Assembly: GCA_016196885.1 (NCBI GenBank)
Contig: JACPWU010000019.1
Span: 1 to 32,000, forward strand
DNA: 32,000 bases
Source of the DNA: Chlamydiota bacterium
Lineage (GTDB): Bacteria > Auribacterota > JACPWU01
Direction: 5' to 3'
The position numbers and the translations under genes are program-made. Each line of letters begins with the position of its first letter. Position 1 is the stretch's first letter. Under the pieces are notes generated by a model. That model did not search any database and had not been told where the DNA came from. It saw only the letters and a program-made list of their open reading frames with translations. Below are positions 4,239 through 24,591 of the stretch, in pieces.

Positions 4239-4304
4239 AGAAATCAAAATGCAAAATAAAGGAGTTTATTAAATTATTCCTTAATTTTGATTTTTGGATT
4301 TTTT
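4239..4304. repeat. heptad-arm hairpin H1, between convergent genes
   Basis: Left arm AAATCAA AATGCAA AATAAAG; right arm CCTTAAT TTTGATT TTTGGAT. The loop is A/T-rich and T-runs follow on both strands, so it may act as a bidirectional terminator. Confidence 0.55.
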
Positions 4305-4319
4305 GCCACGCACCAATCA

Positions 4320-4493
4320 CTAGTTTTGATAGACCTCAACATCCTCCCATCCTTTTTCTTCCAAGCGTCCTTGGCCCGTGATGCCTTTCTGAATGTCCTG
4401 GGAAGCTTCATTGAGAGTCGCATCTGGGGTTTCACATCCAAAAAAAGAAATGAGATTCAGTAAAAGGGCGAGGAGTAAAAATATTTTTTTCAC
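4320..4493 (-). CDS. small lipoprotein (57 aa, GTG start), possibly entericidin-like
   Basis: Below the track cutoff. A GGGAG RBS precedes GTG (rc of 4491-4493). Translation: VKKIFLLLALLLNLISFFGCETPDATLNEASQDIQKGITGQGRLEEKGWEDVEVYQN. It has a signal peptide plus FFGC lipobox and lies 54 nt downstream of the 4548-6470 gene on the same strand. Confidence 0.5.
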   Translation of the reverse strand: MKKIFLLLALLLNLISFFGCETPDATLNEASQDIQKGITGQGRLEEKGWEDVEVYQN

Positions 4494-4547
4494 GGAGACT
4501 CCCTTCTCTATAAACAGAATTCATTTTAGTCTACTCCTTTTCTTTTT

Positions 4548-6470
4548 TCAATCTGATTGCGTGTTTGAGAAAAGACGCTCTTGCACGATAGCCAAGTTGT
4601 GCTGAGCCTCGGGTGTAGGTTTGATCCGAATCGCCTTTTGAAAGGCCTGAAGTGATTTTTCGAGGGAGTTCGTTTCCAAATAAAGCGTTCCGAGATTAAA
4701 ATAGGCCTGATAGGATTTCGGATTGTATTCTGAGCCTCCCTCAAGAAGCGTTATTGCCTTTTTAATATCTCCTTTTTCTTCTTCGAGATAGGCCAAATTA
4801 ATCCAAGCCTCTGTCCATTCAGGTGTTGAAATGATCACCTTTGAATAAATCTCTTCGACCCTAGCATTTTCCCCGAGCGCTAGATAAAGTCTGGCCCTAT
4901 AAATTTCTGAGAGGGGCGGCAGATGTTCAGGGGGAAGAAAGGGAAGCCATTTTTTTAAGGATGAGTAGATGGAGTTTTCGGATACGATTTCTTTTCTCTG
5001 AACCCCTTTTTGTTCGGGCTCTCTCTTTTTTTCAAATAGGACAGCCATGTCATCAAAATAAGATAGTTGCCAGTCTGGATTTTGGGCCAATTTCGAAATC
5101 AGCCTCAGGGAATCTTTTTGAATGTGATCGAGCAAAATGCATGAAAAATCCTGCCACGCCCCTTCATTTTTTATCATCTGATGATATTCATTGAGGCGTT
5201 TTTCACCAGCGACTTCTAACCGTGTGTCTATGAAAGGAGTGAGTTGAGGCCACGCTTCATAAATAAGGGCGGGTCCCCATTCAAGCGTATTGAAAATTTT
5301 TTCATGAGAATGATACTCGGCCAAATATTGAATCGCCTTTTGAGGAAAAATTTCAGGGGCAATGCCAAGCCCAAAGCGTTCAATTCTTTGGTCTCTGACA
5401 AAAAATTGATTGGAAAAAATGAGCCACGAAAGATAAAGACTGCCAGTTAAATAAAATATTTTCATGAGGATCAGGGATTTGTACTTGTCCGCTGGACGCT
5501 GTCCGCTATCCGCTGTTTTTATATTTTTAAGAATGACCACAAAGGCGATCAATGAAAAAAGGGCGATGTTTCTTTGGGAAAGTGTGGCAAGGCCTGAGAA
5601 AAGAATGAAGAGAAGAACATGGGCCTTGGGGACGCGCTTGATTTTAAAAAAAAGAAGAATGATTCCCAGTCCTAACAAAATATAAAAGCAATAGATTGAA
5701 AGAGTCGGGTTCTCAATGGAAAAAGGAGATTTCAATTCTCCAATCATCAAAGAGGGTGCTTCTTGTTTAAACGAAATTTCTTTCAAAAGGGTGAAGGGGA
5801 AGAGAAATCCCTGAAGGCCATAAGGGTTGATGAAACAAGCGCCTACCGTAAGAATGAAGATCAGGGCATGATTGAGAGCAGGTTTCTTTTCCAAAATATT
5901 TTCGAGAAGATAGACGCTGATCAGGGCAGGGCCCATCATGAAAAGACCTTCTGTATTCGTCCATAAAATTTGAAGAAAAGGTAAAATCCACAATGCCTTT
6001 TCATTTTTTTCTCGAGCCCTTTCGAGAACAAAGAGGTCAATGCCCAGAAAAAGAAAGCTCATAAGTTCAGGTCTCAATTGAAAACGTTCTTGGCAGGCCA
6101 GAGCCGTCAAAATAAAAAGGGGCCAGGTTAAAAGAGAATCATTTTTGGAAAAATCGATGGTCTTGAGTAGAAAGATGAAGATTAAAAATAGAAAAATAAT
6201 TCTAAGTAAATTAATTCCGAGAAGTCCAAAAAAATGGCCTGTGAAAAAGGTTAGAATTTGAAAAAGCCAGTGAAGATCGATCCAGAGGACATTGGGATTC
6301 AAACCATAAATATCAGTTCTTGGAATTTGGAGGTGTTCAAAAATCCATTCCCCTGTTTTGAAATGCCAGCCCAAATCATGTGCTGTGATCGTGGTGAAAT
6401 TCATGAGGGCCAGGAGCAGAAAAGAGAGAACGCACAAGCATTTTTGTGCTCGAGAGAGGGTTACCGCCAT
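4548..6470 (-). CDS. polytopic membrane protein with C-terminal TPR repeats (GT-C-type glycosyltransferase-like architecture; function unassigned)
   Basis: 640 aa. About 450 aa are multi-TM, with the N-terminal motif HDLGWHFKTGEWI. The C-terminal ~170 aa are TPR-like (LALGENARVEEIY..., AYFNLGTLYLETNSLEKSLQAFQKAIRI). Confidence 0.75.
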   Translation of the reverse strand: MAVTLSRAQKCLCVLSFLLLALMNFTTITAHDLGWHFKTGEWIFEHLQIPRTDIYGLNPNVLWIDLHWLFQILTFFTGHFFGLLGINLLRIIFLFLIFIFLLKTIDFSKNDSLLTWPLFILTALACQERFQLRPELMSFLFLGIDLFVLERAREKNEKALWILPFLQILWTNTEGLFMMGPALISVYLLENILEKKPALNHALIFILTVGACFINPYGLQGFLFPFTLLKEISFKQEAPSLMIGELKSPFSIENPTLSIYCFYILLGLGIILLFFKIKRVPKAHVLLFILFSGLATLSQRNIALFSLIAFVVILKNIKTADSGQRPADKYKSLILMKIFYLTGSLYLSWLIFSNQFFVRDQRIERFGLGIAPEIFPQKAIQYLAEYHSHEKIFNTLEWGPALIYEAWPQLTPFIDTRLEVAGEKRLNEYHQMIKNEGAWQDFSCILLDHIQKDSLRLISKLAQNPDWQLSYFDDMAVLFEKKREPEQKGVQRKEIVSENSIYSSLKKWLPFLPPEHLPPLSEIYRARLYLALGENARVEEIYSKVIISTPEWTEAWINLAYLEEEKGDIKKAITLLEGGSEYNPKSYQAYFNLGTLYLETNSLEKSLQAFQKAIRIKPTPEAQHNLAIVQERLFSNTQSD

Positions 6471-7993
6471 AAGGTTCTATCGAGGGAGCGGTATTGAATG
6501 GCTTCTGAGATGTGAGCCGATTCTACGAATTCACTTTCGCCAAGATCCGCAATCGTTCGCGCGACTTTGAGAATGCGGTCATAGGCCCGGGCGCTCATGC
6601 CCCATTCAGTGATGGCCATTTTCAAAAGTTCTTTCCCTTCGGCCTGAAGCGGGCAATGTTTTCGAATCTCTTTCAAATTCATCTGGGCGTTGGTGAAAGC
6701 GCCCTTTTTCTTAAAGCGTTCCTTTTGGATGTCTCGGGCTTTTTGAACCCGATCACGAACTTGAGCAGAACTTTCTGCAGAGGTCTCGCTTGAAAGCTCA
6801 TGGTATTTCACCTCAGGGACTTCAATGTGAATGTCCATGCGGTCGAGCAAAGGTCCTGAAATTTTGGAGCGATAGCGCTGGACTTGAATAGGCGTACATC
6901 TGCATTCTCGGCGGGGATCTGTGAAATAACCACAAGGGCAGGGATTCATGGCACTCACCAACATGAAGCGGGCGGGATAAGTCAAGGAGCCCGCGGCACG
7001 TGTGATGGTCACATGTCCTTCTTCAAGGGGCTGGCGCATGACTTCTAAAACATTTCTTCTGAATTCGGGAAGCTCGTCTAGAAAAAGAACGCCATGATGG
7101 GAAAGGCTGATTTCTCCAGGCTTTGGGAAAGTGCCTCCTCCCACAAGCCCAATGTCGCTGATGGTATGATGGGGCGAACGAAAAGGACGTTTTGTCAGCA
7201 GGGCTTTTTGCCTCGACAGAGTTCCTGCGACACTGTGAATTTTAGTGGTTTCTAAGGCTTCCTCTAAACTCATTGAAGGAAGAATGCTGGGAAGCGATTT
7301 TGCCAATAGAGTTTTACCTGAGCCTGGCGGCCCGATCATGAGGAGATGATGAGCCCCTGCCGCAGCGACTTCCAAGGCCCTTTTGGCCATGCCCTGGCCC
7401 TTAATCTCTGAGAGGTCCAATTCAGCAGGGCCATTTTCTTGAAAAAGATTTTCAGGATAAAGGACATGATTTTCCAAGGTTATTTCCTTTGAAAGAAAGC
7501 GGGCCGCATCTCCCAAGGTTGAGACGCCATACACATTTAAACCTTTTACCACGGCTGCTTCTTGAATGTTTTCGGGGGAGACGAGCATTCCCTTTTTACC
7601 TTCTTTTAAGGCTTGTAAGGCCATGGGCAGAATTCCACGAATCGGACGCACCTTGCCGTCCAGGGCCAACTCTCCAACAATGGTGTATTCATCAATGGAG
7701 GGAACGTTGAATTGACCGGAGGCGATGAGAATGCCAAGCGCAATGGGTAAATCAAAATTGGGACCTTCCTTTTTCGTATTGGCTGGGGCGAGGTTGACCG
7801 TGATTCTTTTGGGGGGATGATGATACCCCGAATTTTCAAGAGCTGATTTGACACGGTCACGAGCTTCTTTAACCGAAGTGTCCGGAAGACCCACCACAAT
7901 GGTCGTTGGCAACCCCTGTGCAATATCCACCTCAATTTCAACGGTATAGGCCTCGACGCCTAACACGGCACTGGAATAAACTTTGGAAAGCAT
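6461..7993 (-). CDS. yifB: YifB/ComM-family Mg-chelatase-like AAA+ ATPase
   Basis: 510 aa with a Lon-protease-like N-domain, Walker A GPPGSGKT, Walker B VLFLDELPEF and a Cys cluster CPCGY...C.C. Confidence 0.9.
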   Translation of the reverse strand: MLSKVYSSAVLGVEAYTVEIEVDIAQGLPTTIVVGLPDTSVKEARDRVKSALENSGYHHPPKRITVNLAPANTKKEGPNFDLPIALGILIASGQFNVPSIDEYTIVGELALDGKVRPIRGILPMALQALKEGKKGMLVSPENIQEAAVVKGLNVYGVSTLGDAARFLSKEITLENHVLYPENLFQENGPAELDLSEIKGQGMAKRALEVAAAGAHHLLMIGPPGSGKTLLAKSLPSILPSMSLEEALETTKIHSVAGTLSRQKALLTKRPFRSPHHTISDIGLVGGGTFPKPGEISLSHHGVLFLDELPEFRRNVLEVMRQPLEEGHVTITRAAGSLTYPARFMLVSAMNPCPCGYFTDPRRECRCTPIQVQRYRSKISGPLLDRMDIHIEVPEVKYHELSSETSAESSAQVRDRVQKARDIQKERFKKKGAFTNAQMNLKEIRKHCPLQAEGKELLKMAITEWGMSARAYDRILKVARTIADLGESEFVESAHISEAIQYRSLDRTLWR

Positions 7994-7998
7994 GATAA

Positions 7999-8397
7999 TT
8001 AACTCCTTCTAAGACTCCTCTCTGACCTATTATTCCCTCCCCCTTTGTGGGGAGGGTTAGGGAGGGGGATTTTCAGCTGTTCAACAATTCTTTCTAATGT
8101 TCCATTCCGATTTTTCAACACCTCGTGATTCCAAAATCTTAATATCTCAAATCCTTCTTTTCTAAGCCCCTCATCACGTTCCTTATCATCTTGATTTTGC
8201 GCATGCTGTCCTCCATCAACTTCAATAATTAGCTTTCTCTCAAAACAGGCAAAATCGACGATGTATCGGCCTATCACAGCTTGCCTTCGGAATTTAACAC
8301 CCAGTTGACAAGCTTGCAATGAATACCAAAGGTATTTTTCGGCCTCCGTAAGATGATGTCTCAGTTTTCTAGCTCTATCTCTTAACTCCTGGGTCAA
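7999..8397 (-). CDS. DUF559 (Vsr-like fold) endonuclease-domain protein
   Basis: 132 aa, TTG start. ARKLRHHLTEAEKYLWYSLQ...FRRQAVIGRYIVDFACFERKLIIEVDGGQH...LRFWNHEVL is the typical DUF559 pattern. The C-terminal tail PLPNPPHKGGGNNRS is translated from the flanking repeat. Confidence 0.85.
   Translation of the reverse strand: MTQELRDRARKLRHHLTEAEKYLWYSLQACQLGVKFRRQAVIGRYIVDFACFERKLIIEVDGGQHAQNQDDKERDEGLRKEGFEILRFWNHEVLKNRNGTLERIVEQLKIPLPNPPHKGGGNNRSERSLRRS
8033..8069. repeat. left inverted repeat of the DUF559 unit (C-tract/G-tract palindrome)
   Basis: TTCCCTCCCCCTTTGTGGGGAGGGTTAGGGAGGGGGA aligns with the rc of 8398-8436 with a few 1-nt indels. It has an internal hairpin CCCTCCCC/GGGGAGGG. 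Confidence 0.7.
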
Positions 8398-8436
8398 TCA
8401 CCCCTCCCCTGACCCCTCCCACAAGGGGAGGGGAAG
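8398..8436. repeat. right inverted repeat of the DUF559 unit
   Basis: rc reads CTTCCCCTCCCCTTGTGGGAGGGGTCAGGGGAGGGGTGA. It has an internal hairpin CCCCTCCC-ACAAG-GGGAGGGG and abuts the DUF559 start codon. Confidence 0.7.
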
Positions 8437-8493
8437 TGAGTTGCATGAGCCGCCAAAAGAAGATAGGAAATAGTTTTCCTAAATTTATCAAGT

Positions 8494-8862
8494 TTAAGAT
8501 CCGTTTGCCTCAAACGCGTTTTCAATATGTTCTATCTTGGGATGCTGATTTATCCATTGAATCGCAATGACATCAAATCGGAAATCCATTTTTGAAATCC
8601 CTTTTTCTTTGATAAAAGAAAGGGCCGCTTTCACAATTTGTTTTTGTTTTCTCGCATGTACGCGTTCCTGAGGAAGTCCGAAACCATCTTCGTGGCGATT
8701 GGTTTTAACCTCGACAAAAACAATCGTTCCTCGATGAAGAATAACCAAATCAATTTCTCCGACCGGACTTCGATAATTTTTTTCAAGAATGCGATAGCCT
8801 TTTTTTTTGAGATAATTTTCTGCGAGGGTTTCACCTTCTTTTCCGACCGTGAGATTTGTCAT
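8494..8862 (-). CDS. yraN: YraN-family (UPF0102) endonuclease-like protein
   Basis: 122 aa. GETLAENYLKKKGYRILEKNYRSPVGEIDLV...VFVEVKT is the UPF0102 signature. It overlaps the rnhB stop. Confidence 0.85.
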   Translation of the reverse strand: MTNLTVGKEGETLAENYLKKKGYRILEKNYRSPVGEIDLVILHRGTIVFVEVKTNRHEDGFGLPQERVHARKQKQIVKAALSFIKEKGISKMDFRFDVIAIQWINQHPKIEHIENAFEANGS

Positions 8863-9497
8863 AGAATTGAGAGTTGCCTAACGGGTTCAAAGCTTTTGCG
8901 ATGTATAAGACAAGGTCCTTTTTCCTTCAGTCTCTCTAAATGCATTTGAGTTCCATACCCTTTATGCTGCTTAAAGCCATAACCAGGGTAACGTTCCTCA
9001 TATTCCAGCATGAGGTGGTCTCGTGTTACCTTGGCCAAGATAGACGCCGCTCCAATGGAGTAACTCAAATCATCTCCCTTGGGAATTCCTCTTTGAGGAA
9101 GGGAAAGACCAGGAATATTAAATCCGTCGACCAAGACAAAATCGGGTTCTAGGGTCAGTTGAGATAGAGCCATTTTCATGGCCTGGAATGAGGCTTCACG
9201 GATATTGATTCGATCAATGGTGTTTTCGTCAACGAGGGCAATCCCTTTTAAAATGGAAGGGTCTTCCATGAGTAGATGGTAGAGTTTTTCGCGTTTAGAG
9301 AGAGAGAGTTTTTTGGAATCGCGGATGCCCTCAAAAGGATTAAAATTTTGGAAAATGACGGCCGCGGCTACGACAGGTCCAGCCAAGGGACCCCGGCCCG
9401 CTTCATCAACACCGGCAATGAGTCTATAGCCTTGTCGATGAAGGGATTTTTCAAATGAATCTCTGGAAGGTGTGGAAGAAGAGATCACAAACACCAT
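8859..9497 (-). CDS. rnhB: ribonuclease HII
   Basis: 212 aa with the VDEAGRGPLAGPVV catalytic motif and DSKKLS. Confidence 0.9.
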   Translation of the reverse strand: MVFVISSSTPSRDSFEKSLHRQGYRLIAGVDEAGRGPLAGPVVAAAVIFQNFNPFEGIRDSKKLSLSKREKLYHLLMEDPSILKGIALVDENTIDRINIREASFQAMKMALSQLTLEPDFVLVDGFNIPGLSLPQRGIPKGDDLSYSIGAASILAKVTRDHLMLEYEERYPGYGFKQHKGYGTQMHLERLKEKGPCLIHRKSFEPVRQLSIL

Positions 9498-9523
9498 TCC
9501 TTGTATCCGGCTAAAAAATTCAG

Positions 9524-9602
9524 CCGTAAACTGTAAGTGATAAGCGGTAAGTTTGAAAGGAATTTATTTTTTACTTACAACTTATAACTTACAGCTTATC
9601 GC
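9524..9602. repeat. heptad-arm hairpin H2 (rplS | rnhB spacer)
   Basis: Left arm CCGTAAA CTGTAAG TGATAAG CGGTAAG; right arm CTTACAA CTTATAA CTTACAG CTTATCG. About 22 bp pair with 3 mismatches and the loop is 20 nt, A/T-rich. Confidence 0.75.
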
Positions 9603-9611
9603 TATTTGTTA

Positions 9612-10031
9612 TTAAGCTTTTTCGCCTACTTCAACAGACTCTGTCGCCAAGGCCGCAGGTGTCTGAGAAGACTTGCCTAAAAGGGTTTTCTTCTCTTTGA
9701 CCTTTGCCTTTTTACCCACTTTATCTCTTAAATAATAGAGCTTGGCTTTGCGAACATTTCCGTGGCGAGTGACTTCCACTTTTTCGACTTTTGGGGAGAG
9801 AAGCGGAAAAGTTCTTTCAACTCCTTCACCAAAGGAAATTTTTCTCAAGGTAATGGTTCGGGAAACCCCACGTCCCTTTCGGGCGATTAAAGTTCCTTCA
9901 AAAGGCTGCACTCTTTCTTTTTCACCTTCAATGATTTTATAGTAAACCTTAAGATCATCCCCAATTCGAAAATCAGGTACATTCTTTCGAAGGTTTTCAG
10001 ATTCCAATTTTTCTAAATAGTTAATTTTCAT
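9612..10031 (-). CDS. rplS: 50S ribosomal protein L19
   Basis: Start moved to the ATG at 10031 (GGAGATAT RBS): MKINYLEKLESENLRKNVPDFRIGDDLKVYYKI.EG.KERVQ.FEG. The upstream 33 codons in the track overlap the trmD end. There is a C-terminal ~25-aa extension. Confidence 0.9.
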   Translation of the reverse strand: MKINYLEKLESENLRKNVPDFRIGDDLKVYYKIIEGEKERVQPFEGTLIARKGRGVSRTITLRKISFGEGVERTFPLLSPKVEKVEVTRHGNVRKAKLYYLRDKVGKKAKVKEKKTLLGKSSQTPAALATESVEVGEKA

Positions 10032-10047
10032 ATATCTCCTCAATATA

Positions 10048-10734: not shown

Positions 10735-10753
10735 GATTTTGTCTGCCTTAAAA

Positions 10754-10999: not shown

Positions 11000-11018
11000 G
11001 TTTTTCTCCTCTTTTTTT

Positions 11019-11088
11019 ACAGCGTTCAGCGTTTAGCGTTCAGCGTTCAGAAAAACTGAACGCTGAGTTCTGACTGCTGAACGCTAAA
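11019..11088. repeat. heptad-arm hairpin H3 (murA | rpsP spacer)
   Basis: Left arm CAGCGTT CAGCGTT TAGCGTT CAGCGTT CAG; loop AAAAA; right arm CTGAACG CTGAGTT CTGACTG CTGAACG CTAAA. It forms 11-bp and 10-bp helices and ends 1 nt from the murA stop. Confidence 0.8.
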
Positions 11089-11089
11089 T

Positions 11090-12391
11090 TTACAGCTCTT
11101 CTCCTACAGTCACTTTCTCTTCCTGCGTCTCAGGAACTCTCTCAATATCGGCGCCTAATTTCCTTAATTTTTCCTCGATTCTCTCATATCCTCGGTCCAA
11201 ATGATAGACCCGGTGAACTTGAGTTTCTCCTTCTGCCACCAGGCCTGCCAAGATTAAAGCTGCGCTGGCCCTGAGGTCTGAGGCCATGACTTGAGCCCCG
11301 CTCAATTTTTTGCGTCCAACAATCACAGCACTGGAACCCTCTAAAGAAATTTTTGCGCCCAAACGATTCAATTCGCTGATGTGCATGAATCTTTCGGGAT
11401 AAATTTTTTCTGTGATGACGCTAATGCCATCGGTGATCGACATCAAGGCCATCATTTGAGCCTGCATATCGGTTGGGAACCCAGGGTAGGGGAGTGTGAT
11501 AACGTCTACCACTTTCAAGGGATCTTCTTGCCGCAGAGTGATGGTGTCTTGCCTAGATTCTATATAGGCTCCAGCCTCGCGCAATTTATCAATCACTGCA
11601 AAAAGATGTCGGTAATGAACATTCTGAATTTCGACTCGGCCTCCTGTCATGGCTCCTGCAATCAAATAAGTTCCAGCCTCGATACGATCAGGGATCACGG
11701 TGTGTTCAGCCCCTTTGAGAGAAGTCTGTCCCTCGATCCGAATGACATGCGTTCCTTCTCCTTCAATTTGGGCACCCATCTTTTTGAGGAATTGGGCCAA
11801 ATCTACGATTTCAGGTTCGCAGGCTGCACTTTCAAGGGTGGTCACTCCAGGCGTGAGGCAAGCGGCCATCATGACATTGGCGGTAGCCAAGACACTAGAA
11901 CCGAAGCGACCACCCAAAAACACATCGCTGCCTCTCATTGAAGTCCCATCTGCGACCACATAACCGTGCTCTACCTGAATCTTTGCGTTGAGTGCGCTGA
12001 GCCCCTTGATGTGAAGATCAATGGGGCGAGGTCCGATGACACAACCTCCGGGCATACTTACCACTGCTCTCTTAAATTTTCCAAGCAGGGGACCGAGCAA
12101 ACTGACGGAGGCCCTCATTCTACGAACCAAATTGTAAGGGGCCTTGAACTGATGAAGTCCGTTGGGGTCTACCCTCACGGAGTTTGGTTCCATCTTTTCA
12201 CATTGAACACCTAAAAATCCAAGCACTTCCATCATGGTTTGGATGTCTTTTAGGGCTGGAACATTGTGAAGTATCGAAGGACTGTCCGCCATCATGGCAG
12301 CTGCTAAAATCGGCAAGGCCGAATTTTTCGCGCCGCTGATGCGAACACTCCCCGACAATTTTTGTCCACCGCGAATGACTATTTTATCCAT
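11090..12391 (-). CDS. murA: UDP-N-acetylglucosamine 1-carboxyvinyltransferase
   Basis: MDKIVIRGGQKLSGSVRISGAKNSALPIL, with the active-site loop PGGCVIGPRPIDLH. The ATG at 12391 is preferred over the TTG at 12421. Confidence 0.93.
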   Translation of the reverse strand: MDKIVIRGGQKLSGSVRISGAKNSALPILAAAMMADSPSILHNVPALKDIQTMMEVLGFLGVQCEKMEPNSVRVDPNGLHQFKAPYNLVRRMRASVSLLGPLLGKFKRAVVSMPGGCVIGPRPIDLHIKGLSALNAKIQVEHGYVVADGTSMRGSDVFLGGRFGSSVLATANVMMAACLTPGVTTLESAACEPEIVDLAQFLKKMGAQIEGEGTHVIRIEGQTSLKGAEHTVIPDRIEAGTYLIAGAMTGGRVEIQNVHYRHLFAVIDKLREAGAYIESRQDTITLRQEDPLKVVDVITLPYPGFPTDMQAQMMALMSITDGISVITEKIYPERFMHISELNRLGAKISLEGSSAVIVGRKKLSGAQVMASDLRASAALILAGLVAEGETQVHRVYHLDRGYERIEEKLRKLGADIERVPETQEEKVTVGEEL

Positions 12392-12585
12392 AAAAGACCT
12401 ACAATGAATTAACTCCCCCAACCCCTCTTATGGCTTTCGCCTCTCGGCTTCAACCACTTCCTCGTCCACCCGCTGCGGCGGGTACCCGGACTCAGTCGAA
12501 TAAGAGGGGAGTAAATACTTTCCCTTAATAATAAATAAAGGGGTAGTTTTTCCCTCCCCTTTATTTCAAAGGGGAGTTGGAGGGG

Positions 12586-13452: not shown

Positions 13453-13455
13453 GGC

Positions 13456-14520: not shown

Positions 14521-14596
14521 CTCGGTTCTCTATTCTGCAAAGCCATTTTCGATTCCATAGGTCATTCATTTGACATTTGAAATTGGACATTTGTCA

Positions 14597-14797
14597 TTAG
14601 CTTTTTTTGTATCTTTTCTGAAATCTCTCAACACGACCGGCCGTGTCTATGAATTTCTGTTTTCCCGTAAAGAAGGGATGACATTTCGAACAAATTCCGA
14701 CTCTTAGATTTTCCTGGGTAGATTTGGTGTGAATTACCTCTCCACAGGCACAGGTGATGGTTGTTTCAATGTAAGTTGGGTGAATTCCTTCCTTCAT
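14597..14797 (-). CDS. rpmE: 50S ribosomal protein L31
   Basis: 66 aa, MKEGIHPTY...C.CG...........C..CHPF(F)TGKQK, with all four Zn-binding Cys present. Confidence 0.95.
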
Positions 14798-14911
14798 AAT
14801 ATCCTCTCTAAGAAAAAGTTACAAAAAATATGATTTCCTGAAAAACGACACAGGGTAGCATAAAGTCTTTTTTTACGCAAGAGCTGACTTTTTAGGGTCC
14901 AAGATTGTAAT

Positions 14912-14984
14912 AGTCGTGAGTCGTCTGTCGTGAGTTTTAAAGGTATTATTTTTTCTCACGACTCACCCCTCACAACTCACGACT
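14912..14984. repeat. heptad-arm hairpin H4 (rho | rpmE spacer)
   Basis: Left arm GTCGTGA GTCGTCT GTCGTGA G; right arm CTCACGA CTCACCC CTCACAA CTCACGA CT. It forms 8-bp and 10-bp helices around an asymmetric internal loop. The loop is 20 nt, A/T-rich. Confidence 0.8.
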
Positions 14985-14990
14985 GTTCTC

Positions 14991-16944: not shown

Positions 16945-16955
16945 TTTAAATCCTC

Positions 16956-17012
16956 TAACCCCTCCATCTCCCCTTTCCCACAGGGACTATAAGGGCTTGA
17001 AATAAGGGGAGA
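16956..17012. repeat. solo copy resembling the DUF559-unit inverted repeat, plus a 9-bp stem
   Basis: TAACCCCTCCATCTCCCCTTTCCCACAGGGA aligns by eye with 8398-8428 (TCACCCCTCCCCTGACCCCTCCCACAAGGGGA). TCTCCCCTT (16967-16975) pairs with AAGGGGAGA (17004-17012). It also carries the third copy of TCCCACAGGGACTATAA, seen at 3475. Confidence 0.55.
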
Positions 17013-17150
17013 GTAAAAAGCGCCCCTTGCACAGGGCAGGAGAGTTCCCCTCTTATTTTTTAAGGGTAGAAACGTAAAAAAACATCTACTACCGCGGTCG
17101 GTTTTGCATTGCCACTGGCAATGCAACCTCCCTTGCTGGGGTTGGGGGAG

Positions 17151-19169
17151 TTAATGGGTTTCAGAAGCTGGACTTGCTCTCTTCAACCCCTCTTTTGTTG
17201 CTTGAATGGCTAAGTTTGCCTGTCCTTTTTCCTGATAAAGCTTGGCCATTCGAAAATAAATCATGAAATCGTTGGGGTTAAATTTTAGAGCTAAAAAGTA
17301 TTTTTCTTCTGCTTCTTCGATATGGCCTTGTTCGGTTAGTTTTTCAGCTTCCTTTTTTAGCTCTTGTGAGCGTCTGGCATCTTGCGGCCCAATGATGCGA
17401 TAAATCAAATATTTTCCGTTTCGATGGACCAGAGAAAATCTTTTGAGGAATTTTCCATATTCAAAACGTTCTGCTAGGAGAGTCCCCGCTCTTCCTTTTG
17501 TCCCTCGGCGCCGATTGGCCATATAGCCCCAGGAAAAGGCAGAAGAATCCTGGAAAGTCCCCAAGGCATGAACATAGAAATGGACCCCATTCTTGAGGCA
17601 ATATTGGTAAAAAGGGTCTTCCTCACTCTCAAAGAGCCTGATGGCAAAGGCCTGAATCTTCTCCCGCATGTCTTCGGATTCATATTTAGGATGAAGAACA
17701 ATCGCGCGTTCTCCATAAGTCAGAAGTGACGGAGAAAGTCCAAAAGGTGCCAAGAAACAAGCGTTCTTTGGGGTGTTTTCCCTCGTCCAGCGAGTCACAT
17801 CCTCTAAGTAAGAATAGGGGACAGCTCTTTCGAACTGTGAAAAATCCTTTGCAATACATTCTGCTTCAGCGAGTAACGTCAGGAGAATACATGTATTCCA
17901 GAAGAGCCTTAATCTGTTCCTTTGGAGAATGCCACCGGGTATCGAACCAATAAGACATGCCAAGAAAAAGACAAGATAAACTTCCAATCTTACAAAAGCC
18001 AAGGACAGTATAAGGAAGGCTGTAAAAAAATACAAGAGAAAAAATAATTTTATACCCCCCCTTATTTTAAGGGGGGGCTGGGGGGATACTTCCTTGATAG
18101 AAGTATAAATCCCAGGGAGGGCCAGAATGAGAAGAGGAAGAAGCATTTTGAAATGTCGCAGTGGGAAGGACTGCAGGGCTGGTGTCCAGAGAAGCCGGAC
18201 GTCAAAAGGAAGAAGGGCAGGGTCTTGAGGCTTCACATTCAGAAATTTAATTTTGTACCCAATGAGTTGAATCATGTGAGAATAAATGGAAAGGTAGGGA
18301 GAGAAGAGCCAGAGAGAAAAGAGGCAGAAAAAAAGAATGGAGAAGAATAATTTTTTATTTTTCCCATGCCAAAGATCAATGAGACAGAGGGAGTAAAGTC
18401 CCATCATTCCTGGCGAGTATAAGAATTGATGGTCCCGAAAATAGGGATGTAAGAGTGCACAAGGGATGAGGACTGAAAGATAAGTGGACGATGGAGGATG
18501 GACGGTGGAGGATGGACGGAAAAGAAATCTGCATATTTCATAAAGCACCCATAGAATAAAATAAATCTGGGCTCCATCCCAGATCATCAAGGAGAGGGCC
18601 AGACTTAATGCGGCCAAAGGGGTTTTGATTTTTTGAGAAGGACGTATCATCAAAGCAAAATGAAAAAAGAGAAAGGGTAGGGCAAAATTTTCTCGAGAAT
18701 ATTCAATGCCCGTCGAGCGCACCACCGAAAAGGTGCTGAGGCCGTAAATGAGGCTTGCGCCTAGGGCCAAAAGGGCATTGTTCGAAGAGGAGTAACAAAT
18801 CCAAAAAATGAGAAAAATTGCGAGACTCAAAAAAAAAGGCTGGGCGGTTCTCACAAATTCTGTGTAAGGGATTTTTTTGAAACAGCTTCGATAGACAGTG
18901 CTCAAGATATGATCCACCGTCAGGGAAAGTTTTGCCTCGGCATCTAAGCCTTCGGGATATTGAGCCTTGAAATCAAGGAAGGGAATTTTTTGCCCCTCTG
19001 CTAAAAGATTCGAAAAATAAAAAAGGAAGGCACTTTCCAGGGTAAAGGGAAGAACACCTGCCTGTCGTAACTCCGCTGTTTTACGAATTTCAATGCGGGT
19101 GTAAACACATAAGAGATAGATGGTAGTAAGGATTAATGAAATGATTAGGGTTTGAAAATGTTTTTTCAT
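17151..19169 (-). CDS. polytopic membrane protein with C-terminal TPR repeats (same architecture as 4548-6470; function unassigned)
   Basis: 672 aa. About 430 aa are multi-TM, followed by a soluble domain and a C-terminal TPR (EEKYFLALKFNPNDFMIYFRMAKLYQEKGQANLAI). Confidence 0.75.
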   Translation of the reverse strand: MKKHFQTLIISLILTTIYLLCVYTRIEIRKTAELRQAGVLPFTLESAFLFYFSNLLAEGQKIPFLDFKAQYPEGLDAEAKLSLTVDHILSTVYRSCFKKIPYTEFVRTAQPFFLSLAIFLIFWICYSSSNNALLALGASLIYGLSTFSVVRSTGIEYSRENFALPFLFFHFALMIRPSQKIKTPLAALSLALSLMIWDGAQIYFILWVLYEICRFLFRPSSTVHPPSSTYLSVLIPCALLHPYFRDHQFLYSPGMMGLYSLCLIDLWHGKNKKLFFSILFFCLFSLWLFSPYLSIYSHMIQLIGYKIKFLNVKPQDPALLPFDVRLLWTPALQSFPLRHFKMLLPLLILALPGIYTSIKEVSPQPPLKIRGGIKLFFLLYFFTAFLILSLAFVRLEVYLVFFLACLIGSIPGGILQRNRLRLFWNTCILLTLLAEAECIAKDFSQFERAVPYSYLEDVTRWTRENTPKNACFLAPFGLSPSLLTYGERAIVLHPKYESEDMREKIQAFAIRLFESEEDPFYQYCLKNGVHFYVHALGTFQDSSAFSWGYMANRRRGTKGRAGTLLAERFEYGKFLKRFSLVHRNGKYLIYRIIGPQDARRSQELKKEAEKLTEQGHIEEAEEKYFLALKFNPNDFMIYFRMAKLYQEKGQANLAIQATKEGLKRASPASETH

Positions 19170-19184
19170 GGGTCAAGCGAGAAG

Positions 19185-19266
19185 GTTCAAAAGTTTAAAA
19201 GTTTAAAGGTTCTAAAGTTTGAAGAATTCGTCATCTTTGAACCCTTGAACCTTTAAACTTTTGAAC
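19185..19266. repeat. octad-arm hairpin H5 (polA | membrane-TPR gene spacer)
   Basis: Left arm GTTCAAAA GTTTAAAA GTTTAAAG GTTCTAAA GTTTGAAG; right arm CTTTGAAC CCTTGAAC CTTTAAAC TTTTGAAC. The period is 8 nt in both arms. Confidence 0.8.
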
Positions 19267-19272
19267 AAGTCG

Positions 19273-21855
19273 TTAAATCTCCATCCAATTCTTCCCGGTG
19301 TGGATGTCCACTTTTAATTTTACCTTGAGGGGAAAGACGTTTTCCATGTTTTCCTGAATCAAGGGTTTTATTTTTTTTAATTCATTTTGGGGAACGATGA
19401 AAATCAGTTCGTCATGGATTTGAAGTACCATTTTGGATTTAAGATGCGATGCGGTGAGTGCCTGATGAACCTTTAGCATGGCCATTTTCATCAAATCGGC
19501 TGCGGTCCCCTGGATGGGTGTATTGATCGCCATCCTTTCCGCCATTTGTCGAATTTGCATTTGAGGATTTGTGAGATCGGGGAGGTATCTCTTTCTCCCC
19601 ATCAGAGTGGTGACAAAACCCTCCCGTCTGGCCTTTTCCAAAATGCCCTTCAAGAAATCTTGGACCTGAGGAAAGCGCTGAAAATATTGGTTCATAAAAT
19701 GCCCTGCTTCTTCAGAAGAGACCCCAAGCTCTTTCGAAAGTCCATAAACACTCATCCCGTAGAGAATGCCAAAATTGATGGTCTTGGCTTTGGATCTCAT
19801 GGTGTCATCCACCTCGCTCTCCTGGACATGAAAAATCGCTTGGGCTGTCCACCGGTGAATGTCTTCATCTTGCTCGAAGGCTGTCATCAGACCCGGATCT
19901 CCTGAGAGGTGGGCCAGGACTCTCAGTTCAATTTGGGAATAATCTGCTGAGACAAGGAGAGTCTCAGGCGGGGCCACAAAGGCGGAGCGGATTTTTTTTC
20001 CGAGGGTACTTCGAATCGGAATATTTTGCAAATTGGGCTCACTGCTCGAGAGCCGCCCGGTCTCGGCGATCGTTTGGTGAAAGGTGGTGTGCAGGCGCCC
20101 TGTCTCAGGGTGAACCAAAAGAGGCAGGCTCTCCACGTAAGTAGATTTAAGTTTGGAAATCTGCCTAAATTCTAAAAGCAGAGGAATGATGAGATGATGA
20201 TCTATCAATTGGGTGAGAACTTCTGCATTGGTAGAATAACCCGTTTTCGTCTTTTTAAGGACAGGGAGCTTCAATTTTTCAAAAAGGATTTTCGAGAGTT
20301 CTTTCGTAGATTGAATGTTAAAGGATTCTCCAGCCCCTGCATGAATTTTTTTCTCGAGTTCTTGAAGAGAATGCTCGAAATCGTGGCTCATTTTCTGAAG
20401 CTGGGCTCTGTCAATGGGAATCCCCGTTTTTTCCATATCAGCGAGAACTTCGATCAAGGGCAATTCGATTTTTTGAAAGAGATTTTCCTGTCCAGAATCT
20501 TTAAGCTGAGCCTCTAAAATGGGCATGAGCTCTAATGTGATGAGGGAATCTTGAACGGTAACTTGGGAGGGATCTTTTAAGATAGGAGGAGGGGATTTGA
20601 GAAAATAATTCGCCAAGTCCGTGAGGTTTTGATGATGAAGGGAGGGATTGATAAGAAAGGAAGCGATCATCACATCAAAGAAAAGGCCTTCTAGAGGCAG
20701 GTTATGATTTTCTAAAATCAGTTTTATTCTTTTTAAATCGTATCCGACTTTTAAAACTTGAGGGTCTTTTAAAATTTTTCGCAAGGAGTCCAGTGTGTTC
20801 TGATCTCCAAGACTAAGGGAATAAGTTTCTTGAGGAGAGAGGGCAATGGCGACTTCGATCAAACGCATTTTTAGGGGATGATCTCCCTCGGCTCTTAAAG
20901 CAAGGCCAATGGGCTTGCCTGCATCTATTCTGAAATTCGAGGCAATTTTATTTTTAGCGGTTGGAAAGGGAGTGGATGTAGAAGCTTCTGGATGAGGGGC
21001 GATTTCTTTTAGAAAATCTCTGAATTCTAAGGTCTTAAAAATTTCTGTGAGGCGGGGGATGTCTTTTTCTTTTAAGGCAGTATCCTCGGGGGAAATCTCA
21101 AGAGGCACCTCGAGGTTTAAGGTAGCCAATTGTTTGCTTAAACGCGCCTCTTTTTCATGAGGGATGAGTGCAACTTTTCGAATTTTTCCCTTTTGAGACC
21201 AGGGAGTTTCGAAAATTTGTTCGAGGTTTTCAAATTCTTGAAGGAGGAGGACAGCCGTTTTGGGTCCTACGCCTGTGACGCCGGGAATATTGTCGGAGCT
21301 GTCTCCAATGAGGGCCAAAAGATCAGGGATTTGTGAGGCGCGAACGCCGTGACGTTCTTCCACGCCCTTTTCATTCAGGATCAAGTTTTCAGCAGGATTG
21401 GGGATGACGCGAACGTGGGGGCCGACCATTTGCAGAATGTCCTTATCGGGACTGATCACAAGAACTTCAAAATTTTCTTGAGCCTTTTTTGCCAGGCTTC
21501 CAATGACGTCATCGGCCTCTACGCCTGAAATTTCAAAAACGCTAAGGCCATAAGCCTTAGAGAGATCTTTGATCCAAGGAAGTTGCATCACCAGTTCATC
21601 GGGCATGGGCTTTCGATGGGCCTTGTAATCCTCAAAGGCCTCATGGCGAAAGGTGGGCCCCTTGGCGTCGAATACCATGGCCAGATGGGTGGGGGCATGT
21701 TCCGTGATAAATTTTTGAAGCATTTTAGCAAAGCCAAAAACGGCGTTGGTCGGCTCACCCTTGGAATTTCTTAAAAGACGAATGGCATAAAAAGCCCGAT
21801 AAATCAGGCTTGTGCCGTCGAAAATGTATAGAGTTTGTCTTGAAGAAGTTTTCAT
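19273..21855 (-). CDS. polA: DNA polymerase I
   Basis: 860 aa with an N-terminal 5'-3' exonuclease domain (GEPTNAVFGF), a central 3'-5' exo-like domain, and pol motifs ADYSQIELRVLAH and LQIHDELIF. Confidence 0.95.
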   Translation of the reverse strand: MKTSSRQTLYIFDGTSLIYRAFYAIRLLRNSKGEPTNAVFGFAKMLQKFITEHAPTHLAMVFDAKGPTFRHEAFEDYKAHRKPMPDELVMQLPWIKDLSKAYGLSVFEISGVEADDVIGSLAKKAQENFEVLVISPDKDILQMVGPHVRVIPNPAENLILNEKGVEERHGVRASQIPDLLALIGDSSDNIPGVTGVGPKTAVLLLQEFENLEQIFETPWSQKGKIRKVALIPHEKEARLSKQLATLNLEVPLEISPEDTALKEKDIPRLTEIFKTLEFRDFLKEIAPHPEASTSTPFPTAKNKIASNFRIDAGKPIGLALRAEGDHPLKMRLIEVAIALSPQETYSLSLGDQNTLDSLRKILKDPQVLKVGYDLKRIKLILENHNLPLEGLFFDVMIASFLINPSLHHQNLTDLANYFLKSPPPILKDPSQVTVQDSLITLELMPILEAQLKDSGQENLFQKIELPLIEVLADMEKTGIPIDRAQLQKMSHDFEHSLQELEKKIHAGAGESFNIQSTKELSKILFEKLKLPVLKKTKTGYSTNAEVLTQLIDHHLIIPLLLEFRQISKLKSTYVESLPLLVHPETGRLHTTFHQTIAETGRLSSSEPNLQNIPIRSTLGKKIRSAFVAPPETLLVSADYSQIELRVLAHLSGDPGLMTAFEQDEDIHRWTAQAIFHVQESEVDDTMRSKAKTINFGILYGMSVYGLSKELGVSSEEAGHFMNQYFQRFPQVQDFLKGILEKARREGFVTTLMGRKRYLPDLTNPQMQIRQMAERMAINTPIQGTAADLMKMAMLKVHQALTASHLKSKMVLQIHDELIFIVPQNELKKIKPLIQENMENVFPLKVKLKVDIHTGKNWMEI

Positions 21856-21862
21856 ATATTAA

Positions 21863-21949
21863 GTCAATAGTCCTATCTTAGTCCACAGTCCATAGTCCAC
21901 AGTCGATAGCTTATAATGTTTTTTATCTATGGACCATGGACTGTGGACT
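21863..21949. repeat. heptad-arm hairpin H6 (secretin | polA spacer)
   Basis: Left arm (GTCAATA GTCCTAT ctta) GTCCACA GTCCATA GTCCACA GTCGATA; right arm CTATGGA CCATGGA CTGTGGA CTG. About 23 bp pair with 2 mismatches. Confidence 0.8.
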
Positions 21950-21960
21950 GAATTTGAAAA

Positions 21961-24504
21961 TCAATCTCTTCTCGAAAGCAGGGTTGTGGAAGGCACTCCT
22001 GCGGGAACTGCAGGCATGGCGGCTGGGGTTTCGGGTTTAGCCTGCGGAACCAAGGTTTCACCGGGCTCCATTTGCGTGGGGCCATAGGGATCACCCGAAG
22101 GGGTCAAAAGTTCGGCCGTGACGAAGATGATCAAGTTCTTTTTAACACTGATTTCCCCCTTTTTTCGGAAGAGAAGCCCCAAAAAGGGAACGTCTCCCAG
22201 AATGGGAATTTTATCATGGTAAGCACTGATTTGGTCGCGGATCATGCCTCCGAGGACAACCGTGTCTCCATCATCCACAATCACACTCGTGGTCACATTG
22301 CGGGTCGAAAAAAGAGGTTGCAAAATGGGATATCCGGGCAGTGTTCTTAAGACGCCATCGGTTCCCGTGAAGGTCTGGGTTGGAACACCGTAGTCCAGCC
22401 ACGTCACAAATTCACTCACCTCCGGGATGATCGTAAGATTGACGGTTTTTCGGTCAGCGCCTACATTCGGGGTCACATCCAGGACAATGCCGATGTCTCG
22501 TGTTTCAAAATTTCCGGGAGAAACCACCGGAGGCGTTGTGACAGTGCCTTGGCTGTTGGTCGTAGCGGGCGTGACATCATATTCTGTTGGATAAATAAAT
22601 TCTTGAACCACTTTGATCTGTGCCCTTTGGCCGTTCACCGTGGTCACGCGGGGGCTGGACAAGAGATTGCTTTTGGTTTTTTGGCTGATGGCATGGAGTA
22701 CAATTGAAAATTCAGGCTTGGTCAAAATACCAGAGAAAGAAACGATGGGGTTGGCTGCCCCCGTCAGGCTCGTGGAGATTTGGCCTGTCAGAGGATCTGA
22801 GGTGAAATATCTCAAATTTCCAGATAGGGCTTGATCGTAAGGTGTCGCTCCTACGGTTTTGGTCAGACGGTCAAATTGGAATCTTTGGAGGGCACCGGCA
22901 GGGGTCAATCCTCCCGTGGATCCTTCATGGAGAAAAAACTTTAAGTCATCTCTCAAAAGCCATTCGAGTCCCATTTCTTCAGCATCTGCGTTCTCCAGTT
23001 CAATGAAACGGGCGGTGATGGCCACCTGATAGGGGGCTACATCCAATGTTCTTAAAATGTCTTCAACAATCTTGAGATTGGTTGGGGTGTTTCGAACGAT
23101 CAAGGTCCCCGTCCTTTGATCCAGAAAAATTTTACTTCCCTCAGGCCAAGGAACGCCGCTTTGTTCCAGTACATCCTTGATGGTGATGGTTTCAGAGACT
23201 TCACCTCCCTGACTGCCCGGTTCTACCCTTTTGGCCTTTTTTTCTTCAGGTTGACTCATTTCAAAAGAGGTGAAGGCGGCCACCCCGCTTGACAAATGGT
23301 AATACCGGGTTTCGTAATCTTCAGGCGGGACATAGTCTGCTGCGACAATGATGATGGCATAATCTTCAATCATGTAGCGTAGACCCTTGGCCCTCAAAAT
23401 ATATTTCAAGGCCTCGATGAGGGGCACGTCCTTGAGGCTGATGGTCACGCGGTCTGATTTTTGAGCCGATGGGGGAGGAGGGGCTGATGCTTCCCCCCCA
23501 GGAGCGTTCTTGGGAGTTGAATGGGATGGAGGAGCCTGCGCTTGCCCTACGGGCTCGGAGGCTCTCAGAGCGGCCTCTTCGGAACTCAGGGCTTGAAAGA
23601 CGGATTCATCCATGATGATGTTAATCCCAGAAATTCTAGAAAGATATTTTACCACATCGGCCAAATGGGCATTGTTGAAGTTGATGGCGGGTATGATTTG
23701 CTCACTTTGGGTTTCCAAATCTTTGCGGGCCTGTGATTCTTCAAGAGGCATTTTCCAGGGCGGAACAATTTCTAAGGCTGGCTTTTCCTTTTTTGGAGGA
23801 AGCCATTCCTTTTGAACGTCCATCATTCGCGATGCCTCCTCGATCGTTTGGCGCTCGGCGTTGAAAGAATTCTGACGGTTTTGGAGAAGCAGGATGTATT
23901 TTCTTGCAATCACGTGGTAGGGATTGTACTCCAGAACTTCCTCAAATTTTTCTTGGGCCTCGTCCAATTTTCCTTCATTTAAGAGGGCTCGTCCTTTTTC
24001 AAAAAGGGTTCGGGCCTTCGCGAGATTAGGACTGTGCTTCCACTTCAATGACTCTTCAGAACCGGTCTCTTCGGGAGGAGGGAGGGGGGCTTCTTCGGGT
24101 GTGGCCGCAGACAAATGATGGAGAGAGGCCTCTTTGTATTTCTGGGAACGGCCGTAACTTGGATCTGCCGAAAGGGATTTTTCAAAAAAGGGGATGGCCT
24201 CTTCATATTCACCTTTTTGATAAAGGGCCAGACCCTGTTTGAAATATTTTTTTGCTTCTTGTTTCTTGATTTGACCGAGGGCCTTGGAAAGTTCTAGATT
24301 GTTGGGATCCTGAGAAAGGGCTTGGTTCAGTAAGCGAACAGCCTCTTGGAAATGACCTTCTTTTTGAAGTGACTTGGCTTGCTCGATTGCTCGATCGGAG
24401 GCGTTCTCTTCCTGAGCCCAAACGCCCAGAGAGACGCTTGAAAGAATCAACGCAATCACCAGAGCCAAAGAAGTGATGGCTCGAAACGCCCCCCCGTTCC
24501 TCAT
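21961..24504 (-). CDS. secretin (PilQ/GspD family) with N-terminal TPR block
   Basis: 847 aa with a signal peptide, TPR repeats (aa ~40-210), an STN-like segment INFNNAHLADVVKYLSRISGINIIMDE, a Pro-rich linker, and the C-terminal secretin motif VVLGGMI...KIPILGDVPFLGLLFRKK. Confidence 0.9.
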   Translation of the reverse strand: MRNGGAFRAITSLALVIALILSSVSLGVWAQEENASDRAIEQAKSLQKEGHFQEAVRLLNQALSQDPNNLELSKALGQIKKQEAKKYFKQGLALYQKGEYEEAIPFFEKSLSADPSYGRSQKYKEASLHHLSAATPEEAPLPPPEETGSEESLKWKHSPNLAKARTLFEKGRALLNEGKLDEAQEKFEEVLEYNPYHVIARKYILLLQNRQNSFNAERQTIEEASRMMDVQKEWLPPKKEKPALEIVPPWKMPLEESQARKDLETQSEQIIPAINFNNAHLADVVKYLSRISGINIIMDESVFQALSSEEAALRASEPVGQAQAPPSHSTPKNAPGGEASAPPPPSAQKSDRVTISLKDVPLIEALKYILRAKGLRYMIEDYAIIIVAADYVPPEDYETRYYHLSSGVAAFTSFEMSQPEEKKAKRVEPGSQGGEVSETITIKDVLEQSGVPWPEGSKIFLDQRTGTLIVRNTPTNLKIVEDILRTLDVAPYQVAITARFIELENADAEEMGLEWLLRDDLKFFLHEGSTGGLTPAGALQRFQFDRLTKTVGATPYDQALSGNLRYFTSDPLTGQISTSLTGAANPIVSFSGILTKPEFSIVLHAISQKTKSNLLSSPRVTTVNGQRAQIKVVQEFIYPTEYDVTPATTNSQGTVTTPPVVSPGNFETRDIGIVLDVTPNVGADRKTVNLTIIPEVSEFVTWLDYGVPTQTFTGTDGVLRTLPGYPILQPLFSTRNVTTSVIVDDGDTVVLGGMIRDQISAYHDKIPILGDVPFLGLLFRKKGEISVKKNLIIFVTAELLTPSGDPYGPTQMEPGETLVPQAKPETPAAMPAVPAGVPSTTLLSRRD

Positions 24505-24518
24505 CGTTCACCTTTTAC

Positions 24519-24591
24519 CAGCGTTCAGTGCACAGCGTATAGCGTTCAGAAAAAAATGATGGTTGGCTTTTCCTGACCGCTGACCGCTGAA
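24519..24591. repeat. heptad-arm hairpin H7, inside the pilus-like operon
   Basis: Left arm CAGCGTT CAGTGCA CAGCGTA TAGCGTT CAG; right arm CTGACCG CTGACCG CTGAA. The 23-nt loop starts with A7. It shares the CAGCGTT unit with H3 and ends 1 nt from the upstream stop. Confidence 0.65.

Follow-up and report, generated by a model that had tools for sequence, protein, structure and literature searches.

The window considered here is a stretch of 32,000 nucleotides (nt) from a Chlamydiota bacterium (contig JACPWU010000019.1, positions 1 to 32,000), and the elements in question are long intergenic hairpins whose arms are built from tandem units of 7 or 8 nt. Nearly all the genes of the window lie on the minus strand; along it are found a pilus cluster of the Amuc_1100/1101/1102 type, a secretin gene, polA, a gene for a Dpy19-like membrane protein, coaE-rho, rpmE, prfA-prmC, aroA, rpsP-trmD-rplS, rnhB and further genes. 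This order is preserved in all the relatives retrieved. The non-coding part amounts to 13% of the window, and the five intact hairpins described below are all inside it.

The same genome was read in the metagenome-assembled genome (MAG) GCA_016178005.1, contig JACOUD010000062.1 (54 kb), which carries the NCBI label 'Chlamydiae bacterium'; the census of this genome covers 38 kb, namely the window and 6 kb more (locus L073). Among the relatives, L068 is the sister MAG GCA_016178055.1, while L070 and L077 form one pair with 89% identity to each other in PolA. The lineage is isolated: the nearest PolA sequences in a protein search are 57-60% identical, with no homologue at 60-100% identity in that search, a PolA scan of genome contigs returned other phyla only (identity of 43% or less), and a metagenome scan with a Dpy19-like alignment gave a single match (29%).

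Inverted heptamer arrays in the window

In each element a short A/T-rich loop separates two inverted arrays, both made of 3-6 tandem units of 7 nt or, in some cases, 8 nt. An earlier note on this DNA had described seven such hairpins, with arrays of 7/8-nt units in register on both arms (Table 1). The longest inverted repeats of the window are those at 9522-9603, 11021-11085, 14909-14987, 19185-19266 and 21880-21949, with arms of 23-31 nt that are 78-91% complementary and loops of 5-24 nt. Tandem Repeats Finder (TRF) reports period-7 arrays in the arms, and period 8 at 19185/19235, with 3.4-4.5 copies. The periodicity of the arms is far beyond chance: their autocorrelation is 0.63-0.91 and, against composition-matched shuffles, reaches p <= 0.004 in each arm and mostly p < 5e-5. 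When folded as RNA, the five intact sites have energies of -31 to -41 kcal/mol and z-scores of -6.2 to -8.3, and none of the 200 dinucleotide shuffles made for each is equally stable. The hairpins claimed at 4239 and 24519, on the contrary, are not significant in the same test, so that the set of seven stands for five of its members.

Table 1. Positions, units, arms, loops and folding z-scores of the seven sites of the window
Site	Type	Spacer	Arms	Loop	z
9524..9602	intact	rplS/rnhB	9527-9552 (GTAAG-type heptamers), 9573-9598 (ACTTAYA x3.7)	9553-9572, carries motif AAAGGAATTTATT	-7.6
11019..11088	intact, CAGCGTT family	aroA/rpsP	11021-11050, 11056-11085	AAAAA	-6.9
14912..14984	intact, AGTCGTG family	rho/rpmE	14912-14934, 14955-14984	has AAAGGTATTATTT	-6.2
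19185..19266	intact, 8-nt units GTTYAAAR	polA/Dpy19-like	19185-19215, 19236-19266		-6.9
21862..21949	intact, AGTCCAY family	secretin/polA	21880-21902, 21927-21949; extra outer units 21862-21879	core TTATAATGTTT	-8.3
24519..24591	degenerate copy, CAGCGTT family	orf315/secretin	diverged (GCGGTCA vs GCGTTCA)	enlarged	-1.6
4239..4304	degenerate A/T-rich member	between convergent genes	ATCAAAAT / ATTTTGAT-type	motif AAAGGAGTTTATT at 4258-4270	-1.3

A hairpin detector of our own, which extends seeds to at least 18 pairs and calls a hairpin periodic when both arms have the same period, finds seven long hairpins in the window, five of them periodic. The two non-periodic ones are a GTAG-tagged doublet at 495-568, similar to repetitive extragenic palindromic (REP) sequences, and, at 29635-29697, a terminator of the conventional kind that has a T-run.

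The intact elements follow the minus-strand gene upstream of them at 1-11 nt from its stop codon (the element at 11019, for which TRF counts 4.4 copies with 91% matches, starts 1 nt beyond the stop of aroA). All seven sites are 1-15 nt past a stop codon, provided that a small open reading frame (ORF) at 4320-4493 is counted for the site at 4239, which lies 15 nt past its stop. This unannotated ORF, on the minus strand of a 340-nt spacer between convergent genes, has a GTG start and encodes 57 amino acids with a textbook lipoprotein signal peptide (MKKIFLLLALLLNLISFFGC...). The 4239 site itself keeps 16 of 19 pairs and period 7, and its TTTTGAT-type arm recurs in L068 at 18230. Judged by their sequences, the sites at 4239 and 24519 are decayed members of the hairpin families.

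Dispersal, gain and loss of the elements

The AGTCCAY family provides the clearest case of dispersal. A second copy of this type is found in the same genome at L073 4436-4511, 11.6 kb from the one at 21862-21949, which it matches in both arms and in the loop core (AAACATTATAA). The homology seen in the pairwise alignment reaches precisely to the outer end of each arm and no further; relative to the neighbouring genes the copies are in opposite orientation, and they differ by one exact 7-nt indel per arm, one 11-nt indel and a few substitutions. A third copy occupies the rplS/rnhB junction of the sister MAG (L068 22090-22175), which differs from the junctions of both other copies. Within the CAGCGTT family, 24519 and 11019 are identical in 80% of the aligned columns, both junctions included (TAAATT junction). 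The window contains three occurrences of the loop motif AAAGGNNTTWWTT, all of them inside element loops (4239, 9524 and 14912), for 0.68 expected per window, and a further one lies in the loop of the L068 element (L068 22127); as the motif was defined post hoc, the match in L068 is the only independent occurrence.

Homologous arms and loops, with unit variants in the same order, are shared by copies at non-orthologous loci in three families. In the 38 kb of this genome, two families are represented by two copies each, at least six unit types coexist and most of them are seen once; inside each element, both arms included, the units are homogenised. The earlier remark that only the hairpins at 11019 and 24519 share a unit is correct inside the window and becomes misleading once the 6 kb more and the relatives are read. 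The argument built on it, that a copy-paste repeat is improbable, is contradicted by the homologous copies at non-orthologous loci, in both orientations, and by the presence or absence of elements at orthologous junctions. On this comparative evidence, copies have been duplicated to new intergenic sites, both within the genome and across related genomes, and in either orientation; as far as the aligned copies tell, they also change by the gain or loss of whole units. The exact 7-nt indels and the homogenised units directly support one of the possibilities listed in the earlier note, slippage plus hairpin-templated correction.

The same junctions were also compared among relatives. The rplS/rnhB junction measures 114-116 nt with an element (window and L068, in which the element differs from that at 9524) and only 1-3 nt without one (L070 and L072). 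The aroA/rpsP junction has 90 nt with the element in the window and 28 nt without it in L068, and the secretin/polA junction has 105 nt in the window and 51-90 nt, free of hairpins, in L068, L070 and L072. In the rho/rpmE spacer, L072 has an element of different units and L068 has none. The polA/Dpy19-like junction carries an element in the window, L068, L070 and L072, with units that are all different, and is empty in L074, L075, L077 and L078; between L070 and L077, despite their close relationship, this spacer falls from 75 to 31 nt. These comparisons show elements that have, to judge from the junctions, been gained or lost as whole blocks, junctions of 1-31 nt becoming spacers of 90-120 nt or the reverse.

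Other positions are also occupied: two elements lie between divergent genes (L070 3132 and L072 3187), the L073 4436 element is 6 nt from a start codon, and L068 contains a half-element at 1397-1431, a single array without partner. The density differs among lineages. This genome has six periodic hairpins per 38 kb; at the strict threshold L068 and L072 contain two apiece, and about 53 kb of sequence from another six related lineages yielded none.

A set of 65 loci, fetched by PolA from unrelated phyla as background, was meant as a control and became a result. Eighteen periodic hairpins, mostly of period 7-8, were found in 175 kb from 11 acidobacterial loci versus three in 931 kb of other phyla. 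The MAG loci L013, L014, L022, L041, L047 and L052 (Acidobacteriota/Thermoanaerobaculia) have about 100 hairpins with periodic arms per Mb, of period 7, 8 or 9. Three acidobacterial loci are 77-79% identical in DNA and directly comparable, and in three comparisons a site with an element differs from its empty counterpart by a clean block of about 90-100 nt. One filled site in L041 is flanked by an 8-bp direct repeat (CCCATGAG), and the empty allele in L047 shows a single CCCGTGAG, stop codon included, at the place where L022 has an element. The units also depend on the genome, the CGTNAGG form being present in all three such copies of L041 and CGTNAAA in all three of L022 and L047. A half-element, again a single array without partner, is found in L022 at 11331-11385. 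In addition, a TGATTGG/ATCACAA family common to two acidobacterial genomes has a systematic mismatch in each unit.

Relation to described repeats

The arms of REP sequences are 20-40 nt long and non-repetitive, with a conserved GTAG or CGTC tag, and the copies are nearly identical within a genome. The elements described here resemble REP, REPIN and BIME sequences in being short imperfect palindromes of spacers, often located just past stop codons, present at more than one site, with an abundance that varies among lineages and in either orientation. They differ in that the arms are tandem heptamers, the sequence varies from copy to copy and no consistent tag is present; the ends (AGTCC.., CAGCG.., GTTCA.., GTAAG..) share neither GTAG nor CGTC, the tags expected at one end of a REP or REPIN palindrome. 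REP sequences are reported to affect mRNA stability, read-through and ribosome stalling at termination codons (PMC3733652; PMC12306157). This genome also has a GTAG-tagged doublet, in two copies within 54 kb (window 495-568 and L073 2794-2866). The window copy starts with GTAG, is non-periodic and consists of two small inverted palindromes (TGTAGTCGCCCGATTTATCGGGC ... GCCCCATAAATGGGGCGACTACA), and it looks REPIN-like; GTAG-type REP repeats have been documented in the PVC superphylum (PMC3733652).

Several other classes were considered. The AGTCCAY copies lack the target-site duplication expected of miniature inverted-repeat transposable elements (MITE), and no parent insertion sequence (IS) was seen in the DNA read; the only analogue is the acidobacterial element with the CCCATGAG repeat. 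Integron attC sites were excluded by the flanking genes, which are housekeeping genes in conserved order (polA, rho, aroA, prfA and the rpsP operon), and by the lack of RYYYAAC...GTTRRRY core sites. CRISPR and iteron readings were rejected on the same two grounds.

It is important to note that the build of these elements is not new, contrary to the statement of the earlier note that no described element class has it. In Geobacter metallireducens, paired sites on opposite strands were listed as 'predicted global regulator binding sites' of classes 1-3, comprising 24 pairs of four tandem octamers, 21 pairs of three 8-9-mers and eight pairs of five tandem heptamers; they are missing from G. sulfurreducens and were read as sites for a global regulator (Aklujkar et al., 2009; PMC2700814). 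As here, those elements are intergenic (71-115 nt) and consist of two inverted arrays of 3-5 tandem units of 7, 8 or 9 nt, with several unit classes in one genome. In Geobacter each class has tens of copies, and the sister species has none. The sites of the window likewise have at least three tandem units per arm and arms able to pair, as expected for inverted pairs of tandem 7-9-nt arrays. Conversely, seven Geobacter class-3 elements rebuilt from the supplement were all recovered by our detector (17-25 pairs, period 7 in both arms, 76-115 nt). The differences are the phylum, the units and the degree of similarity among copies, since Geobacter copies are similar by BLAST and most unit types are seen here once in 38 kb. 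The function proposed for Geobacter (binding of an IHF/HU-type protein) is only a guess, and neither a loop motif nor proximity to stop codons was reported there. Some units are alike: the Geobacter 5'-arm unit TCAGAAT/TCAGGAG resembles TCAGCGT at 11019. On the other strand the CAGCGTT unit of 11019 and 24519 reads NNNCTGA, which resembles the Geobacter class-3 MTYCTGA and the TAACTGA of Beggiatoaceae and cyanobacteria, and the acidobacterial unit GGGTTGCT resembles the Geobacter class-1 GTTGCTYN; either resemblance may be a coincidence or reflect a shared constraint.

Xanthomonas genomes contain 70-75 intergenic pairs of convergent GGGAATC arrays each, which are capable of forming stem-loops (Rehm et al., 2015; PMC4692102). 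According to the text of that paper, on which this comparison is based rather than on sequence, they are intergenic tandem heptamers with pairs on opposite strands close by, as in our elements. From one related species to another their arrays differ in length but remain of the same type, either single or an inverted pair, and the repeats are transcribed. Unlike the present elements, which are not prone to form G-quadruplexes and have units that vary by locus, they rely on one G-rich unit throughout the genome and were interpreted as G-quadruplexes.

Heptamers are the commonest class of long simple sequence repeats (SSRs) in prokaryotes, for which polymerase slippage was proposed (Mrazek, 2007, as quoted in PMC4679880 and PMC4692102). 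As far as these quotations reach, the long SSRs, the cyanobacterial STRR sequences and the TAACTGA repeats of Beggiatoaceae (PMC4679880) resemble our elements in the 7-nt unit, the intergenic position, the change of copy number by slippage and the lineage-specific expansion. In the same accounts they are mostly single direct arrays, located upstream of start codons in the case of TAACTGA, whereas here inverted pairs make up one hairpin.

The architecture had therefore been noted in single genomes (Geobacter in 2009 and Xanthomonas in 2015), and these sightings were never unified, named or explained. What the present analysis adds is that inverted heptamer arrays are dispersed and insertion-like, direct evidence of whole-unit slippage, the homogenisation of units within an element and even genome-wide, and the frequency of the build in Acidobacteriota. 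The elements could offer a handle on why 7-nt repeats dominate the long SSRs of prokaryotes, and they bear on how long RNA hairpins situated 1-15 nt past stop codons affect operon expression. In annotation, they lengthen spacers, look like terminators and can disrupt assemblies.

Origin of the elements and competing explanations

On balance, we consider it probable that the seven sites belong to dispersed intergenic palindromic mini-repeats, five as intact and two as decayed copies. These repeats, for which the name 'hairpin minisatellites' is used here, would be similar to REP or MITE sequences and shaped by slippage and by template switching between the arms. Array length would change by replication slippage, and the two arms would be kept alike by intrastrand template switching, that is, quasipalindrome correction, which may also homogenise unit variants, lengthen the arms and invert the loop. 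In other systems, template switching between the arms of inverted repeats homogenises and expands the arms and inverts spacers (PMC8604942; PMC13100816; PMC7202029). As such switching copies changes from arm to arm, period and pairing would persist while the sequence drifts, and loops would appear in both orientations; each copy could in this way drift to a unit of its own. The elements would survive in spacers only, and their closeness to the stop codon may be explained by the need to keep the ribosome-binding site (RBS) of the next gene: if blocks of about 80 nt land in very short spacers and those that spare the RBS survive, a distance of 1-15 nt from the stop is expected. Transcribed inside operons, the elements would form RNA hairpins of 20-30 bp that, as REP sequences do, probably hold back 3' exonucleases, reduce read-through or make ribosomes stall at termination. 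We regard these effects as side effects and not as the reason why the elements exist; the RNase III processing, insulator and stabiliser roles put forward in the earlier note may be further consequences, although no strand-specific signature was found.

Several observations weigh against this interpretation. No target-site duplication flanks the two AGTCCAY copies in the pairwise alignment, and no transposase, RAYT or other mobilising gene is present among the genes of the 54-kb contig or of the relatives' loci. The polA/Dpy19 spacer is occupied in four of ten lineages of the clade, always 3-12 nt past the stop codon, which could mean a selected role there and not repeated insertion. None of the seven sites is more than 15 nt away from a stop, and recognisable transcription units (rpsP-trmD-rplS, polA and coaE-rho) adjoin the five intact ones; a functional boundary element would look alike. 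Near-identical units recur between genomes that are only 57-60% identical in PolA. The arms have, in addition, a consistent handedness: in a set of 31 elements drawn from acidobacterial loci, the window, L068, L072 and L073, the 5' arm is rich in G and T and the 3' arm in A and C, independently of the strand that is read (GT 23 versus AC 7, GG 18 versus CC 7, AG 16 versus CT 7). A conserved 'AG every 7 nt' rule, which applies to many units and not to all, was abandoned in favour of this description. Drift and homogenisation alone predict neither the handedness nor the recurrence of units, which hint at a constraint on the sequence; a directional recognition or copying step may be involved. Finally, the sample from the clade is small (11 elements).

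The first competing explanation is that the hairpins are selected RNA elements, either terminators or attenuators independent of a U-tract, barriers to 3' exonucleases, or RNase III sites at operon boundaries, with periodic arms as a by-product of stem building. In its favour, the stems are very stable (z of -6 to -8), all seven follow a stop codon closely, the intact ones stand on both sides of conserved units (for example rpsP-trmD-rplS and polA), the polA/Dpy19 position is filled in four lineages and the genome encodes Rho. Furthermore, E. coli REP sequences located 15 nt or less from a stop codon stall ribosomes and lower the expression of the upstream gene, and REP sequences stabilise upstream mRNA (PMC12306157). 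We nevertheless judge this explanation unlikely. As the earlier note had stated, no element is followed directly by a U-tract, the tails being A-rich or mixed; the nearest case to a terminator is the 9524 element, in which a U6 run begins 3-5 nt past the stem on the coding strand. A scan with a terminator consensus found none at the elements and background counts overall (25 matches versus 23.7 expected), and a sigma-70 promoter scan was also at background level, with one weak match inside 14912. With Rfam 15 at the gathering threshold, no hairpin was matched. Between coding and antisense strand the minimum free energies of the intervals differ by -6 to +9 kcal/mol, in favour of one strand or of the other; neither strand folds consistently better and there is no sense-strand G.U asymmetry. 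Given the lack of U-tracts and of G.U bias and the two elements between divergent genes, the sites are not ordinary terminators, and the reading as intrinsic terminators was rejected, also in view of the two loop orientations and the site next to the start codon at L073 4436. An ordinary terminator is used by this organism at 29635-29697, where a G+C-rich stem of 19 pairs out of 25 followed by TTTTT stands after the plus-strand gene 29121-29633. The junctions that bear elements are, moreover, 1-3 nt long in relatives, where a strong terminator would leave essential genes downstream of it without transcription, and an element is missing in a relative with 89% identity.

A broader proposal, which reaches beyond the hairpin minisatellites of this clade and which we consider distinctly unlikely, is that hairpins of inverted tandem 7-9-mers in the PVC clade, Acidobacteriota, Geobacter and Xanthomonas are one cross-phylum element class with its own mechanism of propagation or recognition. 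In one version, the hairpin would template its own copying with no transposase required; in the other, a protein would read the period of 7 nt. The consistent richness of the 5' arm in G and T would then be a footprint of the mechanism, and such a class, if true, could explain the predominance of 7-nt units among long prokaryotic SSRs.

Still less probable are two further explanations, to which we give about the same low weight. According to the first, the elements are DNA arrays whose 7-nt units, on both arms, are recognised by a global regulatory or nucleoid-associated protein, as proposed for Geobacter (PMC2700814), itself a prediction. The genome-specific unit variants (CGTNAGG versus CGTNAAA), the recurrence of units in distant genomes and the consistent handedness of the arms agree with this view. 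Nonetheless, the six or more unit types in 38 kb would require many proteins, or one that reads shape, positions are not kept between close relatives, seven bp is not a helical repeat and no candidate protein has been linked. According to the second, implied in the earlier note, each hairpin was born locally by slippage and template switching without dispersal; the single occurrence of most unit types in 38 kb, the half-elements (window 14567-14598, L022 11331-11385 and L068 1397-1431) and the lack of target-site duplications fit this origin, which is already contradicted for AGTCCAY and CAGCGTT, and which has against it the three families with homologous copies at non-orthologous loci, the loop motif common to elements with different arms and the clean blocks of about 90 nt against empty sites.

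Some minor features of the window complete the picture. The rpmE/prfA spacer contains a period-7 array without inverted partner (CATTTGA x4.6, 14567-14598), which may be a half-element. Unpaired period-7 arrays are also found in coding regions at 5486-5516 and 18485-18518 (TGTCCGC x4.4 and TGGACGA x4.9). A tRNA gene at 782-854 on the minus strand, the only Rfam match in the window (69.9 bits), lies within the mechanical ORF 646-945, which is for that reason probably spurious. Finally, stable non-periodic hairpins around GGGGAGGGG / CCCCTCCCC motifs occur at 8398-8493, 12422-12585 and 16945-17190 (z of -1.3 to -4.3), and these spacers may represent a further repeat family of this genome.

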